64,000 nt of DNA, from contig CP066682.1 in the NCBI GenBank assembly GCA_016432285.1, forward strand, positions 439,072 through 503,071, in the 5' to 3' direction. A program made the position numbers and the translations under genes. Below the pieces are notes generated by a model. The model worked only from the letters and a program-made list of their open reading frames with translations, made no database searches and was not told where the DNA came from. This DNA is from Candidatus Kaiserbacteria bacterium (GTDB taxonomy: Bacteria > Patescibacteriota > Minisyncoccia > Phycocordibacterales > UBA2100). Each line of letters starts with the position of its first letter. Positions within the stretch are counted from its first letter, which is position 1. Of the stretch, positions 6,796 through 62,231 are shown in pieces.

Positions 6796-6824
6796 ACGAT
6801 TTTCTCGAAGCTTGCACCAGTATA

Positions 6825-6960
6825 CCCCGTGAGATAAATCCGCTCTTCCTTTGCGGGCGTTCTGTGCCACCCGATCTCACGGGGCTTACCCCGTGAGATA
6901 AATCCGTTTCTCCTTTGCGGGTGTTCTGTGCCGCCTGATCTCACGGGGCCTACCCCCGTG
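6825..6960. repeat. tandem direct repeat, ~65-bp unit x 2.1, each unit containing palindrome CCCCGTGAGAT...ATCTCACGGGG
   Basis: Units at 6825-6889 and 6890-6953 are ~90% identical. A third unit begins at 6953. Located between divergent starts at 6795 (minus strand) and 6994 (plus strand). Confidence 0.8.
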
Positions 6961-6993
6961 GCGCTTCCCAAAGGGTGCGATACAATCATCTGT

Positions 6994-8133
6994 ATGATTC
7001 ATAGCAAGAGTGTGAAGGCCGGTCTCGTTCTCGCAGCGCTTCTCCTCCCGCTCCTCGCGACGGCTGCCGAGTGGAAGACGGGTGAGCAGTTCTCTCTGGG
7101 GAGCAGCGAACGGTACACCGACGACCTCTACATCGCGGGCGGCAACGTAACGACGGCGGCCACGATCAACGGCGACCTTGCGGCGATGGGCGGCAACGTG
7201 CTCGTCAATGGCCCCGTCTCGGGCGATATTTTCGCGGCAGGCGGCAGCGTTACGATCCTCGGATCGGTGGGCGATGACCTCCGGGTCGCGGGTGGCAACA
7301 TCACGATCTCGAGTGCCGTTCGCGGCGATCTCGTCGTCGGCGGCGGCCAGGTCAATATCTCCGGTGAAGGAATCGGTGGCGATGTGCTCGCCGGTACTGG
7401 TGTTCTTCGAATCGACGCGCCCGTGGGGGGAGATGTGGTAATCGGCGGTGGCGAAGTCGTCATCAACGCACCGGTCGGCGGCAACGTGCGATTCGCTGGA
7501 GAAAATCTCACGCTCGGCTCCGGGGCGGTCATTGAGGGCAATCTCTCGTACGCGAGCCCGAAGGAAGCGAAGCTCGAAGAGGGCGCTGTCGTCCGCGGAG
7601 AAACGAGCTACGAACAAACGCAAGACGTGCGCGGCATCGCCGAGAAGGGCTTTCTCGCCTTCATCACGCTCGCCACCATCGGCAAGTTTCTCTCGATCCT
7701 CGCGAGCGCGCTCATCATCGGGCTCGCTTTCAGCAAATACTCCGTGGCACTCGTGGAGGGCGCGATCGCGCGCCCGTGGTTTGAGATGGGTCGCGGGCTC
7801 GTCACGCTGATCCTGCTGCCGGTCTTTTCGATCATTCTCCTCGTGACGGTGCTCGGCATACCGCTCGGGCTCTTGGGCCTCACCGCATTCGTGGCCGCGA
7901 TCATCTTTTCCTCGCTCGTCGCTCCAATCATTCTCGGAAGCCTCTCGTACAAGTGGATCACGCGCACCGGCTACCTCGAAGTGTCGTGGAAGACGATCCT
8001 GCTCGGCGTCGTGCTCTACACGCTGATCGGCCTCGTGCCCTTCATCGGCCCGCTTGTGAAATTCGCGCTCGTGCTGCTGGCGCTTGGCGTAACAGCCAAG
8101 ATCAAATGGGACATCGCCAAATCCTGGCAATAA
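6994..8133 (+). CDS. bactofilin-like (polymer-forming beta-helix repeat) protein with C-terminal multi-TM domain
   Basis: Signal/TM at N-terminus. ~12 degenerate repeats of xGGNVxIxGxVxGDL type. Four hydrophobic helices at C-terminus. TACAAT 7 nt upstream of the ATG. Confidence 0.5.
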   Translation: MIHSKSVKAGLVLAALLLPLLATAAEWKTGEQFSLGSSERYTDDLYIAGGNVTTAATINGDLAAMGGNVLVNGPVSGDIFAAGGSVTILGSVGDDLRVAGGNITISSAVRGDLVVGGGQVNISGEGIGGDVLAGTGVLRIDAPVGGDVVIGGGEVVINAPVGGNVRFAGENLTLGSGAVIEGNLSYASPKEAKLEEGAVVRGETSYEQTQDVRGIAEKGFLAFITLATIGKFLSILASALIIGLAFSKYSVALVEGAIARPWFEMGRGLVTLILLPVFSIILLVTVLGIPLGLLGLTAFVAAIIFSSLVAPIILGSLSYKWITRTGYLEVSWKTILLGVVLYTLIGLVPFIGPLVKFALVLLALGVTAKIKWDIAKSWQ

Positions 8134-8254: not shown

Positions 8255-8971
8255 TCAGCGCATCTTTTTGATCTCCACGGCAACGTCGCTCGCCAGAAAG
8301 TAATACCCCCTTTTTCGTTTTGTGAGCACATCGGCGGCCGCGTTGCTCACCGCGCAGGCCTTCTTGGCAGCCGCAAGCGGCGCGAGACCCGCTGCCAGAA
8401 ACCCGGCGCAGAGTCCTGCGAGCACGTCGCCAGTACCGGCTTTCGCGAGTCCCTTATTGACCTTCAGCGAAATATGGACATTCGATGTCCATATTTTTGT
8501 GGAGGGGCCTTTTTGCAGGATCACGTTGCCGCGCGCGACGATTTTTTTGATGTCGGCATTCTTTTGCAGCAGCTTCCACTCTCCCGCATTTGGCGTGAGA
8601 ATCGCGTTGCGAAGGTCGGATCCGCGCAGGGCCTTGACGCCGTCGGCGTCGATCACCTTGGGGAGGGGGAGCCGCGCAAGCTCGCGCATCAGTCGCTGTG
8701 TCGCAGGGCGAACTCCCGCACCGTTGCCAAGAAGGAGAATGTCAGCCGTCTTCGCCTGTTTTTTGATTATCGAAAGGTGAGTGGTGGAGAGAAATTTCCC
8801 CTTTAATTTTTTCGTCATCAAATCCGGCGAGAGCGCGTTCAGAGCCCATGCCACGCGCTCGGGTGTCATAACGACTACGGATTCGGCCCCGGCGCGGAGC
8901 GCCGAGATCGCGGCGAGGTAGACCGCACCCACATACTCTTCAGAGCCGCCGACGACCAGCACTCGTTGCAT
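8255..8971 (-). CDS. nnrD: ADP-dependent NAD(P)H-hydrate dehydratase (YjeF C-terminal domain)
   Basis: GNGAG...GTGDVLAG motifs of the carbohydrate-kinase-like Nnr family. Start at MQRVLVVGG, with TATAAT 6 nt upstream on the minus strand. Confidence 0.7.
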   Translation of the reverse strand: MQRVLVVGGSEEYVGAVYLAAISALRAGAESVVVMTPERVAWALNALSPDLMTKKLKGKFLSTTHLSIIKKQAKTADILLLGNGAGVRPATQRLMRELARLPLPKVIDADGVKALRGSDLRNAILTPNAGEWKLLQKNADIKKIVARGNVILQKGPSTKIWTSNVHISLKVNKGLAKAGTGDVLAGLCAGFLAAGLAPLAAAKKACAVSNAAADVLTKRKRGYYFLASDVAVEIKKMR

Positions 8972-8987
8972 CTGCGCATTATAGCCG

Positions 8988-9023
8988 CAAAAGAAAAGCG
9001 CCCCGCAAGGGGCGCTTTTCTTT
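8988..9023. terminator. bidirectional terminator hairpin AAAAGCGCCCC-GCAA-GGGGCGCTTTT
   Basis: Perfect stem flanked by A-run and T-run, between cspA and the nnr start. Confidence 0.7.
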
Positions 9024-9029
9024 AGAGAC

Positions 9030-9230
9030 TTAGGCTTTCGAGACCTGAGTCGCGTTCGGTCCTTTCGGACTTTCTGCGACCTCAAAGGTCACCGTGTCGC
9101 CTTCGCGAAGCTCGTTGAACGAAACTCCGGCAAGCTCGTTGGCGTGGAAAAAGAGATCTTTCTCCTGGCCCTCTCGCTTGATGAACCCGAATCCCTTGTC
9201 GGTGAGACGGGCGATTGTTCCTGTTTGCAT
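9030..9230 (-). CDS. cspA: cold-shock protein (CspA family)
   Basis: GFGFI and FFHANEL RNA-binding motifs. 66 aa. Confidence 0.85.
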   Translation of the reverse strand: MQTGTIARLTDKGFGFIKREGQEKDLFFHANELAGVSFNELREGDTVTFEVAESPKGPNATQVSKA

Positions 9231-9358
9231 AACAGTTGGACGTTTTTGCTAAATCAAGACAGTTATGCTGAGAGTGGAGAGTCGATCCTTCAATCCCGGA
9301 TCAGCGCTGGTTGATGCAGGAAAGGTAGCACCTTTCCACCTCGCTGTCAATGCGCTCC

Positions 9359-21450: not shown

Positions 21451-21484
21451 AGCGCTTCGCCGACGGTCGGCGAAGCGCGTTTTG
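21451..21484 (+). terminator. rho-independent terminator GCGCTTCGCCGAC-ggt-CGGCGAAGCGCG + TTTT
   Basis: 12-bp stem and T-run immediately after the rseP stop. Confidence 0.75.
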
Positions 21485-42093: not shown

Positions 42094-42127
42094 GTTTTTG
42101 TTATCATCTGCACGTTTGGTCCTGTCC

Positions 42128-42180
42128 TCTATCGGCTCGAACGTGACCTTCTCAAGGCTAAAGCCGGGGTGAGAAGCGAG
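42128..42180 (+). pseudogene. degenerate 5' two-thirds of a tRNA-Glu-like gene (no matching 3' acceptor strand)
   Basis: GGTCCTGTCCTCTATCGGCTCGAACGTGACCTTCTCAAGGCTAAAGCCGGGGT aligns with tRNA-Glu 42306-42357, then diverges into repeat sequence. Confidence 0.45.
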
Positions 42181-42275: not shown

Positions 42276-42305
42276 GAACCCAACATATTTTATACTCGCA
42301 GCGAT

Positions 42306-42377
42306 GGCCCTATCGTCTATCGGCTAGGACGTGACCTTCTCAAGGTCAAGAGCGGGGTTCGATTCCCCGTAGGGTCA
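42306..42377 (+). tRNA. tRNA-Glu(CUC)
   Basis: Acceptor GGCCCTA/TAGGGTC. Anticodon stem TGACC/GGTCA. Loop UUCUCAA. T-arm CGGGG-TTCGATT-CCCCG. Confidence 0.75.
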
Positions 42378-42459
42378 TGAATACCAAAAGTTCGCAGCGC
42401 CGCTGCGGCTTTTTTGGTATTCGCGGGTTCCATGCGGGGAATCGAAAGACGGAGGCGGG

Positions 42460-46772: not shown

Positions 46773-46782
46773 CGCTCGAATT

Positions 46783-46861
46783 ACCCAGAGGACAGGTCTC
46801 TGGGTATGGAAGGGGGCCAAAAACCCAGAGACCTGTCCTCTGGGTATGGCGGGGGCCATTG
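46783..46861. repeat. two tandem hairpins in inverted orientation (ACCCAGAG-GACAGGTC-TCTGGGT-ATGGAAGGGGGCCA / ACCCAGAG-ACCTGTCC-TCTGGGT-ATGGCGGGGGCCA)
   Basis: Second unit is the reverse complement of the first plus a conserved ATGGnGGGGGCCA tail. Directly after the ahcY stop. Confidence 0.7.
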
Positions 46862-50804: not shown

Positions 50805-51197
50805 ATGGAAAACGAATACGCGCACGCACTTGCCGAGATGATCGAAAAGGGGATGAGTCCCGCGAAGGCCGTGGGTGAGCTTCACAAAACGCTCCTTGCG
50901 CACGGGCGCGAGGCGCTCTTGCCGCGCATTGGTCGCGCCTTTGCTCGCATCGCTGCCCGCAAGAGGCTAAAAAGCGAGCTGCGCCTTACGGTCGCCACAG
51001 AGGGCGATGCGCGGCAAGCCGAACGCGAAGCAAAGGCCACGCTCACGGATCTCGACGTCGATTCCGCTGATCTGGAGACTGTCGTCGATGGGAGCCTCAT
51101 CGGCGGGTGGCGCCTCGAAGGCCGGGAACGCCTCGTGGATGCGAGCTACAAAAAATATCTTCTCGACATTTATCACCGCGCCACGGGTGCTGTATAA
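50805..51197 (+). CDS. atpH: F0F1 ATP synthase subunit delta (short)
   Basis: Position between b and alpha. OSCP-like C-terminal LIGG...LVDASYK. Confidence 0.65.
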
Positions 51198-51211
51198 TCG
51201 CTTTTTCACGT

Positions 51212-52780
51212 ATGGACGCCGCAACAGTGCAAAAAATCGTTCGCGAAATCGAAAAGTTCGTGCCCGCAACGGAGAGTGAACATGTGGGCCGCGTGGTCTC
51301 GGTGGGCGATGGCGTCGTCGCGATCGACGGCCTCTCCAAAGCGGTGATGGGCGAAATCGTCCACTTCGAAGAAAATAAGGGGAAGAAACTCGCCGATGCG
51401 ATGAAAGACGGGGGCGCGATCCAGGGGCTCATTCTCAATCTTGAGGAAGACGGCGTTATGGCGGCAGTCCTCGGGGACACGGCGCGCGTGCAGGAAGGTA
51501 TGACCGTGAAATCGACCGGCAAGATTCTCGAAGTCGCTTCCGGCGATGAGCTCTTGGGGCGCGTGGTGAATGCGCTTGGTGAACCAATCGACGGCAAAGG
51601 CCCTTTCAAGAAGCCGACCATGATGCCCGTGGAGCGACAGGCTTCGGGTGTGATCGATCGACAATCTGTGAGCGTGCCGCTTCAGACTGGCATCAAGGCG
51701 ATCGACGCCATGATCCCGATTGGTCGCGGCCAACGCGAGCTGATCATTGGAGACCGAGGCACCGGCAAGACGACGGTCGCGATCGACACGATTTTGAACC
51801 AGAAGAACGAACCGAAAGAGCGGCGCCCGATCTGCATCTACGTGGCGATCGGCCAGAAGGAATCGAAGACCGCGCGCATCACGCAGCAGCTTCGCGAGGC
51901 CGGGGCCCTCGAGTATTCGATCATCGTCGATGCTCCCGCCTCTGCCCCGGCCGCTCTGCAATTTCTCGCGCCGTTCGCGGGCGTTGCCATCGGAGAATAT
52001 TTCATGGACGCGGGGCGCGACGTGCTGATCGTTTACGACGATCTCTCGAAGCAGGCCGTAGCCTACCGCCAGCTCTCGCTCCTTTTGCGCCGTCCGCCGG
52101 GCCGCGAAGCATACCCAGGCGACATTTTCTATCTCCACTCGCGCCTTCTTGAGCGATCGGCGCGCCTTTCTGAAGAAAAGGGTGGCGGCTCCATCACCGC
52201 GCTTCCCATCATCGAAACGCAGGAAGGCGACGTCTCCGGTTACATCCCGACCAACGTCATTTCGATCACCGACGGACAGATGTTTCTCATCACGGATCTT
52301 TTCAACAAAGGCATCCGGCCGGCGATCGACGTGGGTATCTCCGTCTCACGCGTGGGCTCTGCCGCGCAAACGAAAGCGATGAAAGCGGTTGCGGGCGGCA
52401 TCAAGCTGGAGCTCGCGCAGTTTCGAGAGCTGGAGGCCTTTATGCAGTTCGCGTCTGATCTCGATAAAGAAACGGCCGACCGCATCGAATCGGGCCGCCG
52501 CATGGTAGAGGTGCTGAAGCAGAAGAACGGCGCGCCGATTCCGCTCGAAAAGCAGGTGGCCGCCATCTACGCCGCCAACCAGAAGTTTTTTCTCGCGGTG
52601 CCCGTGGGGAAGGTAACGGCTGTGGAGCAGCTCTTCGTCGATTTTCTCGACGCGCAGCACAAGAAGACGCTCGACGAGATCAAGAAGAGCGCACAGCTTT
52701 CTGACGAATCGAAGAAGGATCTCAATAAGGCAATGGAAGAATTCCGTCTCGCGCACCCGGAGCACTTCGCCTCGAAATAG
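51212..52780 (+). CDS. atpA: F0F1 ATP synthase subunit alpha
   Basis: P-loop GDRGTGKT. 523 aa. TATAAT 15 nt upstream. ORF 51107 is an upstream extension. Confidence 0.9.
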
Positions 52781-52781
52781 A

Positions 52782-52810
52782 AATATGGACATTCGATGTC
52801 CATATTTTCT
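52782..52810. repeat. 29-bp perfect palindrome GAAATATGGACATTCGATGTCCATATTTT (copy 2; copy 1 at 8468-8496)
   Basis: Exact match to 8468-8496. Here it is intergenic between atpA and atpG. Confidence 0.85.
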
Positions 52811-52822
52811 TCATACGTAGCT

Positions 52823-53740
52823 ATGGCCTCGCTCAAAGACATCAAGCTCAAGATCCTCTCGTACAAAAAGACGGGCACCGTTACGCACGCCATGGAGGCG
52901 GTGTCGGCCGTGAAGATGCGGAAGAGTCAGGAGCGTGCGCTCTCGGGCCGATCCTACGCCGCAGCAGCGCTCTCGGTTTTGGAGCGCATGAGCGGCACCG
53001 CAGATGTGGAGCGGCACGCTCTCGTGCAGGAGCAGGAGGGGAAGACCTGCTTCATCGTCGTAACGAGCGACAAAGGACTCGCGGGCTCTCTCAATAGCGC
53101 GGTCATCAAGCGCGTGGAGCAGGAAATTGGGAGGCTTAGCCTCCCAAAAAACGACGTCGCGATCATCGCGATGGGCCGGAAGGGCGGGGATTATTTTCTC
53201 GCGCGCGGGTACGAAGTGCGCCTGAAGCAGGAGAACGTCAGCGACGGTGTGTCCGAATCTGACGTACGGCGCATTACCGACACGCTGCGGGGTTGGCGCG
53301 ACGCGGGCGAGATCGGCCCCGTCTTTATCGCGTACACCAACTTTCTCTCCACCTTCGAGCAGGAGGCGGTCGCCCGCAGGATCGTGCCGATCACGAGCGA
53401 GACCATGCACGAGATGGTCGCCGGCATCAGGCCCGCGCGCGGCAAGTACGCGCCCGAGGTGGCCGAGCGGCACGAGAATCCGGCGGCGTACACGATCGAG
53501 CCGGACACCGACGTGGTGCTCGAAGCGCTTTTGCCGAAGCTGCTCAACATCGCCGTCTTTCACGGCGTCCTCGAATCGAAGGCGTCGGAACACTCCGCCC
53601 GCATGGTGGCCATGAAGAGCGCGACCGACAAGGCGAAGGAAATGGCACAGGATCTCACGCGCACCTTCAACAGAGTGCGCCAGGCCGCGATCACGCGCGA
53701 GGTCTCCGAAATCACCTCCGGTATCGAGGCGATGAAATAG
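52823..53740 (+). CDS. atpG: F0F1 ATP synthase subunit gamma
   Basis: MASLKDIKLKI N-terminus and conserved C-terminal helix ...ITREVSEI..G. Confidence 0.85.
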   Translation: MASLKDIKLKILSYKKTGTVTHAMEAVSAVKMRKSQERALSGRSYAAAALSVLERMSGTADVERHALVQEQEGKTCFIVVTSDKGLAGSLNSAVIKRVEQEIGRLSLPKNDVAIIAMGRKGGDYFLARGYEVRLKQENVSDGVSESDVRRITDTLRGWRDAGEIGPVFIAYTNFLSTFEQEAVARRIVPITSETMHEMVAGIRPARGKYAPEVAERHENPAAYTIEPDTDVVLEALLPKLLNIAVFHGVLESKASEHSARMVAMKSATDKAKEMAQDLTRTFNRVRQAAITREVSEITSGIEAMK

Positions 53741-61033: not shown

Positions 61034-62134
61034 ATGTCGCTCAGCATCGGTATTGTAGGGCTCCCCAATGTGGGAAAGTCGACGCTTTTTAACGCGCTCA
61101 CGCGAAAGGGCGTGCTCATTGCCAACTACCCATTTGCCACGATCGACCCGTCGGTCGGAGTGGTCGCTGTGCCCGATCACCGACTCGACAAGCTCTCTGC
61201 CATGTCGAAATCAGAGAAAACGATTCCGGCGGCTGTGGAGTTCGTCGACATCGCCGGCCTCGTGAAAGGTGCCTCGGAGGGGGAGGGCCTGGGCAACCAG
61301 TTTCTTTCGCACATCCGCGAAGTGGACGCGATCGCAGAGGTGGTGCGTGTCTTCGACGACGAAGATATTCACCACGTGGCTGGCGACGTCGATCCTCGAT
61401 ACGACATTGAGGTGATCGATCTGGAGCTCGTGCAAGCCGATTTGCAGGGCGCTGAAAAGCGGCTCGAACGGGCCGAGCGCGACTCGAAGGGCGGAGAAAA
61501 AGAGATCGTTGCGGAGCGAGATATTTTGCGAAAAATCGTGCCCGTTTTGAAAGCCGGTAAGGCGGCGCGGTCCGCGCCGCTCTCGGCAGACGAATCAGCA
61601 CGCGCCAAAAAACTCAACCTTCTCACCATGAAGCCAATTCTCTATGTCCTCAACAGAAAGAGCGGCGCGGTCAATATAGACGCCGAAGGGGGAGAGAGGT
61701 GGCGGGAGTTGAAAAGTTTTCTCGAACAGAGCAACTCACAGTACGTCTTCGTGGATGCGGGAGTGGAGAACGATCTTTCAGACGTGCACACCGACGAGAA
61801 AGCGGACTTCCGGCGCGAGCTCGGTGTGTCAGATGACGGGCTCGATGGCTTGATTCGCGCGGGCTACACGCTTTTGGATTTGATTTCATTCTTTACGACT
61901 GGCGAAGACGAGAGCCGCGCGTGGACGATCAAACGCGGCTCCACTGCGCCCGAAGCCGGCGCTGCTATTCACAGCGACTTTCGCGACAAGTTCATCCGCG
62001 CGGAGACGATTCGCTGGGACGTGCTGCTTGCAGCCAGCTCGTGGGTGGGCGCGCGCGAAAAGGGACTGGTGCGAAGCGAGGGCAGGGAATACGTAGTGCA
62101 GGACGGCGACGTAATGGAGTTCAAACACTCCTAA
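61034..62134 (+). CDS. ychF: ribosome-binding ATPase YchF
   Basis: G1 [10 protein letters not shown]3 DIAGLV. NKxD-like region. C-terminal TGS domain. TATGAT 8 nt upstream. Confidence 0.9.
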
Positions 62135-62231
62135 CAAAATACGGCAGTCAGACTGCCGTATTTCGCGCGCGCGATACGCGGCGAAATGCACTCTTTGTCA
62201 AATCCGCGCAGAGACGCTACGATGCAGGCAT

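Follow-up and report, generated by a model that had tools for sequence, protein, structure and literature searches.

The stretch of DNA analysed here, 64,000 nucleotides from a Candidatus Kaiserbacteria bacterium and hereafter called the window, carries the NAD(P)HX dehydratase gene nnr and, about 44 kb away, the adjacent genes for the F1 alpha and gamma subunits, atpA and atpG (Table 1). Both places hold the same 29-mer, GAAATATGGACATTCGATGTCCATATTTT, which occurs exactly twice in the window, at 8469–8497 and 52780–52808. No third copy was found in the window with up to three mismatches allowed, and 100 shuffles of the sequence contained no match. The original prediction had reported this exact pair and argued that chance could not produce it, and both statements stand; the positions it gave, 8468–8496 and 52782–52810, mark the right sites and are off by one and two bases. 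Its description of the 29-mer as a perfect palindrome is wrong. The inverted repeat consists of 12-bp arms, AAATATGGACAT and ATGTCCATATTT, around a non-palindromic 3-nt centre, TCG, and the outermost G and T are unpaired. As single-stranded DNA the repeat has a folding energy of about −10 to −12 kcal/mol (z −4.2 to −6.7; for copy 1 in nnr, −5.8 to −6.7) and, in a window of about 59% G+C, the AT-rich hairpin is conspicuous.

Table 1. Positions of the two hairpin copies and their host genes in the window
Feature	Position	Strand	Remark
NAD(P)HX dehydratase (nnr; YjeF_C / Carb_kinase, PF01256) CDS	8255–8971	−	Host of copy 1
Hairpin copy 1, 27 nt	8470–8496		12-bp arms, centre TCG; in-frame within nnr
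atpA (F1 alpha subunit) ORF as listed	51107–52780	+	Stop abuts copy 2; true start may lie downstream of 51107
Hairpin copy 2, identical 27 nt	52781–52807		atpA–atpG spacer
atpG (F1 gamma subunit)	52823–53740	+	ATG 15 nt past the end of the hairpin

On the minus strand, copy 1 encodes ten residues of nnr. The nnr protein matches a Candidatus Kaiserbacteria NAD(P)H-hydrate dehydratase (P0001, PF01256) at 100% identity and is neither longer nor shorter than orthologues without the hairpin, as expected from the earlier claim that the copy sits in the minus-strand nnr frame without changing protein length. Copy 2 lies between atpA and atpG, also as predicted, and the shared sequence opens with the G that ends the atpA stop codon, TAG (52778–52780). 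The two copies are oppositely oriented relative to the transcribed strand.

The window holds other repeats. A perfect 27-nt palindrome, AAATACGGCAGTC-A-GACTGCCGTATTT, lies at 62137–62163, 3 nt past the stop of a YchF-like GTPase ORF (61034–62134); it has the AAATA/TATTT outer stem and the 27-nt length of the nnr and atp hairpin with a different core, and may be a member of a second hairpin family. Two more perfect 27-nt palindromes, G+C-rich and intergenic, at 21452–21478 (GCGCTTCGCCGACGGTCGGCGAAGCGC) and 32299–32325 (CGCGCGACGCTGATCCAGCGTCGCGCG), are probably terminators; by our estimate, far fewer than one perfect palindrome of 27 nt would arise by chance over 64 kb. Two exact direct copies of a 41-nt sequence occupy 29894–29934 and 33534–33574, 3.6 kb apart. 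The second begins within tRNA-Ala(GGC) (33465–33538), taking in its last 5 nt, and includes a terminator-like hairpin followed by T6, and the region at about 28–30 kb is low in G+C (0.47) and contains four tRNA genes; the pair may be an att-like duplication that an integrated element left behind. Elsewhere, a 64-nt unit is repeated in tandem (89% identical) at 6823–6950, just upstream of and overlapping the start of ORF 6928–8133, and the arms of a perfect 24-nt inverted repeat, TACCCAGAGGACAGGTCTCTGGGT, stand 17 nt apart at 46782–46846. Finally, the 54 nt at 42117–42170, 188 nt upstream of tRNA-Glu (42305–42378) and 81% identical to its start, may be a tRNA remnant.

A hairpin family in Patescibacteria and associated Y1 genes

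The nnr and atp copies belong to a family with the consensus AAATA-TGGACA-N5-TGTCCA-TATTT and a conserved unit of 27 nt. A scan of one genome per GTDB species for ATATGGACAT-N3-ATGTCCATAT returned 31 loci, nearly all in Patescibacteria, against about one by chance on our estimate; the lineages include UBA2100 (12 distinct copies), Kaiserbacteria, Ryanbacteria, Paceibacterota and Saccharibacteria. The looser N5 pattern gave at least 120 matches in metagenome contigs and none in viral contigs, a result that led us to reject a phage origin. The exact window variant had no match in the scan of metagenomes. Members of the family occur on more than 150 independent Patescibacteria contigs, which come from numerous studies and assemblers, with wide variation in copy number between genomes. 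Over 154 distinct sites the commonest centre types are TCCGA (60) and CGCCG (57), and the canonical core, TGGACATC-S-GATGTCCA, forms a palindrome of 17 bp in which about 11 bp separate the centres of the half-sites. Profiles of the flanks, taken over 104 oriented copies, revealed no asymmetric end tag, only the symmetric AAATA/TATTT extension, and neither GTAG nor CGTC was found at the palindrome end. The palindrome is prolonged by at least three non-conserved pairs past the 27 nt in about 29% of copies, against about 1.6% expected. In one locus (L031, 7769–7816) two hairpins are adjacent, a variant TGGACGACGTCCGACGTCGTCCA followed directly by a canonical TGGACATCGGATGTCCA. Literature searches found no paper with the exact hairpin sequence, and no description of the hairpin in work on REP, RAYT or IS200 in CPR/Patescibacteria.

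In three loci (L030, L008 and L022) the hairpin stands on both sides of an ORF and recurs in-frame inside it. These ORFs pass the Pfam model Y1_Tnp (PF01797, IS200-like) at 31.7 and 36.4 bits, with a cut-off of 23. By tblastn, 25 of about 170 loci have a Y1 homologue, and some 20 Y1 genes are bracketed, with one hairpin 11–20 nt before the start codon and another 15–80 nt past the end of the match or on the stop. At L165 the hairpin lies directly on the TAA stop of the Y1 gene, an arrangement that it shares with atpA in the window. Most copies are nonetheless solo: 38 of the 154 distinct sites are inside a Y1 gene or at most 150 nt from one, versus 116 with no Y1 gene within 150 nt. The loci examined around the 12 distinct UBA2100 copies hold no Y1 gene, and the 64 kb of the source genome covered here hold two hairpin copies and none either. 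Several transposase contigs are only about 670–810 bp long, near the length of one hairpin-to-hairpin unit, and such units may explain some assembly breaks.

The Y1 proteins have an invariant signature in alignment, comprising N-H-Y-H and two tyrosine columns (Y93 and Y129). An AlphaFold model (pLDDT 85.5) found its best PDB match by Foldseek in 4ER8, the E. coli REP-associated tyrosine transposase with its REP hairpin (E 1.5e-5), followed by the TnpA proteins of IS608 and ISDra2. A PDB search with a single Y1 sequence gave no match, and a profile search recovered ISDra2 TnpA weakly. The sole NCBIfam match, the RAYT equivalog NF047646, stayed below threshold (34.0 and 23.2 bits; cut-off 80). 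The protein family is large: a search for homologues recovered 3,459 clusters with E ≤ 0.001. The best 120 of these are all about 215 aa long, 119 have PF01797 on record, and they come from Kaiserbacteria, Paceibacteria and Patescibacteria under no label other than 'transposase' or 'hypothetical protein'; none of the 120 is from the source contig. For the one gene whose context was tested, P0125, the neighbouring genes are the same on all 24 contigs read, so it behaves like a single-copy RAYT and not like a multi-copy IS. Copies internal to the transposase gene add about ten residues, in a loop of low model confidence.

Transposase sequences group by hairpin centre type. Among 13 aligned proteins, all those flanked by CG-type hairpins have WQGTF, and all those flanked by AT-type hairpins have QGKY or EGRY. 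A separate observation at L008 (689–1612) concerns another hairpin, CACTTGGCGGTCCGACCGCCAAGTG, which brackets another Y1 gene with five copies in about 900 bp, two of them in-frame inside that gene and reading LGGPTAK and LSGPTAK; different Y1 genes thus appear to have different cognate hairpins. The Y1 transposase probably binds the family hairpin. The original prediction had offered a binding site for a dimeric protein as one option, and this is plausible only as a putative contact between Y1 transposase and hairpin; for a transcription factor, no context was found.

The same data bear on three further accounts taken together: an assembly artefact, a chance match, or the target of a homing endonuclease or site-specific recombinase, the last also an option of the original prediction. 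All that speaks for them is that the repeat is short and the genome metagenome-derived. The shuffles gave no match, the hairpin recurs on more than 150 independent contigs, viral contigs are devoid of it, and the linked gene encodes a Y1 transposase; near the copies examined, in a survey that was not systematic, we saw no recombinase or homing-endonuclease gene. An artefact would have been indicated by relatives having the same nnr sequence with no second copy elsewhere. We dismiss it because many other copies exist, and we give these accounts as a group practically no credence. We instead consider it likely, with good confidence, that the 29-mer represents a REP-like hairpin in solo form, cognate to a Patescibacteria-specific, RAYT-related clade of Y1 (HUH, IS200/IS605-superfamily) transposases. 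This reading takes in the observed association with Y1 genes, the anatomy and dispersal of the hairpin, its tolerance in reading frames and its conservation.

Hairpins inside genes and at orthologous sites

The 27-mer has no stop codon in any reading frame. Depending on the frame it reads IWTxxVHI, KYGHxxSIF or NMDxxCPYF, each of which occurs in long ORFs; the hairpin writes short peptides into essential proteins. Genes in these loci were simple ORF calls, and the hosts listed here were checked against Pfam. They are LeuRS (L023 and L124), RecJ (L055), UvrB (L093 and L112), Dus (L131), a reverse transcriptase (L088) and a beta-lactamase-fold protein (L041). The UvrB copy appears to add about 11 residues, measured against the canonical UvrB motif. 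With the same hairpin flanking Y1 genes and sitting in-frame in several housekeeping genes, the option favoured among those first proposed is a miniature element that tolerates in-frame insertion or conversion.

Many solo copies lie 5–40 nt past a stop codon or overlap one, and a stable hairpin in such a position could act in RNA, as a terminator, an attenuator, or a structure that stabilises or processes mRNA (tuning, for example, the atpA:atpG expression ratio), with the repeats being convergent or co-opted. Most described REPs, too, lie downstream of coding sequence, and they are believed to function in RNA (PMC3733652). Against this, a terminator scan made no call at copy 2, whose stem has 4 G-C among its 12 pairs and is followed only by TTTTC; the absence of a G+C-rich stem and of a run of at least five T accounts for that result, and we rejected an intrinsic terminator on the same features. 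No Rfam family matched above threshold, the best being a miRNA model at 22.7 bits against a cut-off of 100. The window copies face opposite ways relative to the transcribed strand, a terminator within LeuRS, UvrB or nnr would be harmful, and the hairpins that bracket Y1 genes would be left unexplained. An origin in RNA function is accordingly very unlikely in our judgement, and we retain the solo REP-like hairpin.

At nnr, an alignment of orthologues, the check put forward with the original prediction, distinguished two kinds of sequence of equal length. In 16 of 39 aligned orthologues the pattern (I/L)WTxxV(H/R)(I/S) occupies the same columns, and the others have an ILSGSR-like (ILSGSRxIS-type) segment there. 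The hairpin segment presumably forms a beta-hairpin, by comparison with B. subtilis YxkO. In the DNA of ten hairpin-bearing orthologues, whose proteins are 66–100% identical, TGGACA-N5-TGTCCA is unchanged. A single codon is kept in 3 of 3 amino-acid-invariant degenerate columns of the hairpin core versus 1 of 101 outside the hairpin in the same ten genes; the nnr hairpin is conserved at synonymous positions. The hairpin accounts for an odd, conserved block of AT-rich codons in otherwise GC-rich genes. Where the hairpin does change, pairing is kept. In two loci (L160 and L161) AACTA...TAGTT replaces AAATA...TATTT, a compensatory change of the outer stem at the price of two amino-acid substitutions, and the centre variants in nnr exchange T-A for C-G. 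The window centre variant places Asn where others have Asp, and the nnr genes of L036 and L038 likewise have A at that position, in an AAT (Asn) codon.

Genes without the hairpin differ from those with it over one block of 18–19 nt, with no difference in length, so simple insertion is not a sufficient explanation in nnr. Presence is patchy among close relatives. A bootstrapped neighbour-joining tree of these short proteins, computed with the hairpin columns left out, contains clades that mix bearing and lacking sequences (69–81% support) and sister pairs with different centre types (81–99% support). The nearest bearing and nearest lacking neighbours differ little in identity, and for that reason we say only that repeated gain or overwriting at the nnr site is suggested.

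Conservation of this kind could also be read as selection by the host. The hairpin would then be mainly a double-stranded DNA site, an operator or chromosome-organising element that a dimeric protein (perhaps a Y1 protein since domesticated) recognises, and selection on the host would hold it in place. The 17-bp palindromic core with its half-sites about 11 bp apart would suit such a protein, nnr and atpA–atpG are occupied in several relatives with synonymous positions conserved, a Y1 gene can stay at one locus as a single copy, and a hairpin 11–20 nt before the Y1 start might serve autoregulation. The copies nevertheless have no consistent position relative to promoters, and many are in genes or on stops. 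The compensatory changes seen in centre and outer stem are more in keeping with a hairpin than with base-specific recognition of a duplex, and both the patchy presence in nnr of close relatives and the widely differing copy numbers argue the same way. We therefore hold a host-serving duplex site to be improbable as the main explanation and keep to the transposase-linked hairpin; lasting conservation at orthologous sites could still reflect a host-useful function, in DNA or in RNA. Named candidates of this type were also considered. The motif does not resemble the sites known for LexA, HrcA, NrdR, PadR, BlaI and TetR-type regulators, a literature search for a Patescibacteria LexA motif found nothing relevant, and a LexA gene adjoins nnr in one relative (L036) and not in others. 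We considered parS, matS, Noc-type sites and DnaA boxes for the in-gene and clustered copies; the clusters are hairpin-bracketed Y1 genes.

The atpA–atpG junction is similarly shared. It is occupied in L085 and L149, whose AtpG proteins are 71% and 66% identical to that of the window, with CGCCG as the centre, and empty in UBA2100. In L049, the spacer (about 8447–9243) has instead some 800 nt extra, apparently an additional gene. Within any one genome the centre is nearly invariant: all 21 multi-copy genomes or contigs have a single centre class, the exceptions being one 1-nt variant copy in each of two genomes. Both copies in the Kaiserbacteria genome JACRFH01 have the rare centre TGCCA, and both window copies have the rare centre TTCGA/TCGAA. 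Uniformity of a 5-nt centre per genome suggests copying or overwriting in place, and the rare centre common to the window copies points to recent copying within the source genome; by its sequence, the pair suggests one source within the genome. The earlier description of the element as recently spread is therefore only half right: it fits the probable copying within this genome, but both sites are already occupied in relatives whose proteins are about 66–73% identical.

A proposed route of spread and comparison with known systems

We infer the following sequence of events. The Y1 transposase would bind the hairpin when it forms on single-stranded DNA, then cut and rejoin it, and in doing so would copy it to new sites or overwrite existing copies. 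Copies would last only where the 6–9 encoded residues fit a tolerant loop or turn. The atpA–atpG and nnr copies would share a common source within the source genome.

A more specific version, which we advance tentatively and regard as possible rather than probable, is that hairpins spread by transposase-mediated cassette exchange at fixed sites as well as by insertion, the centre of an existing hairpin or a proto-hairpin being swapped for the genome's current master variant. Under such exchange, orthologous sites such as nnr and atpA–atpG would stay occupied across species while the centre remained uniform per genome; sister nnr lineages would have different centre types, differing at four or five adjacent bases; and exactly 18–19 nt of nnr coding sequence would be replaced with the length kept. 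If so, Y1 transposases could rewrite essential genes in frame and without change of length.

Patescibacteria have very small genomes with few recognised repeats. Our results point to a REP/RAYT-like pair of hairpin and transposase that is widespread among them, and the hairpin offers a natural marker for tracking strains and lineages. If overwriting in place is real, it would provide a concrete, testable example of the way in which REP-type repeats endure and remain uniform in the long term.

Among known systems, the REP/RAYT pairs ('REPtrons') of Proteobacteria, such as E. coli TnpA-REP (PDB 4ER8), share several features with the one described here. In both, a palindromic repeat brackets a Y1 HUH gene; the gene is single-copy at a fixed locus (in the one case tested here); solo copies are many and dispersed, most of them shortly after a gene; and a stop codon is in some cases provided by the repeat. 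The predicted Y1 structure, moreover, has 4ER8 as its closest solved counterpart. Described REPs can supply stop codons; some are found within genes, with repair genes as frequent hosts, and related species sometimes share the position (PMC3733652). Since in-gene copies, shared sites and stop-supplying repeats are already described for REP/RAYT, the kind of system is known.

Its details differ. REP palindromes end on one side in a GTAG or CGTC tetranucleotide, and the E. coli RAYT requires an imperfect palindrome (PMC3733652), whereas the hairpin here has neither tag and is near-perfect, with a single central base or a 3-nt centre. The protein, at about 215 aa, scores far under the NCBIfam RAYT cut-off. 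In-gene copies appear frequent here, including within the transposase gene, and the length-neutral replacement in nnr and the per-genome uniformity of centres are further departures. Described REPs are usually species- or genus-specific, whereas one 17–27-nt core here spans lineages as distant as Kaiserbacteria, Ryanbacteria, Saccharibacteria and UBA2100.

The IS200/IS605 elements (IS608, ISDra2 and IS200) have the Y1 HUH fold predicted for our protein, from which recognition of a hairpin on single-stranded DNA would be expected, and the hairpin–gene–hairpin unit of about 700–760 bp is similar in size to IS200. Unlike their distinct left and right ends, the flanking hairpins here are identical palindromes; the gene tested (P0125) occurs in one chromosomal context only, and over the sites surveyed solo hairpins far outnumber transposase genes.

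Rickettsia palindromic elements (RPE) are roughly 100–150 bp long, in contrast to the 27 nt of the present hairpin. They end in CGTC, and CGTC-tagged repeats apparently have no dedicated transposase (PMC3733652), whereas the hairpin described here has no CGTC tag and is associated with a Y1 transposase. RPEs insert in-frame into functional coding genes without destroying them (PMC3733652), and in this the two are alike, both being palindromic repeats carried in-frame by protein-coding genes.
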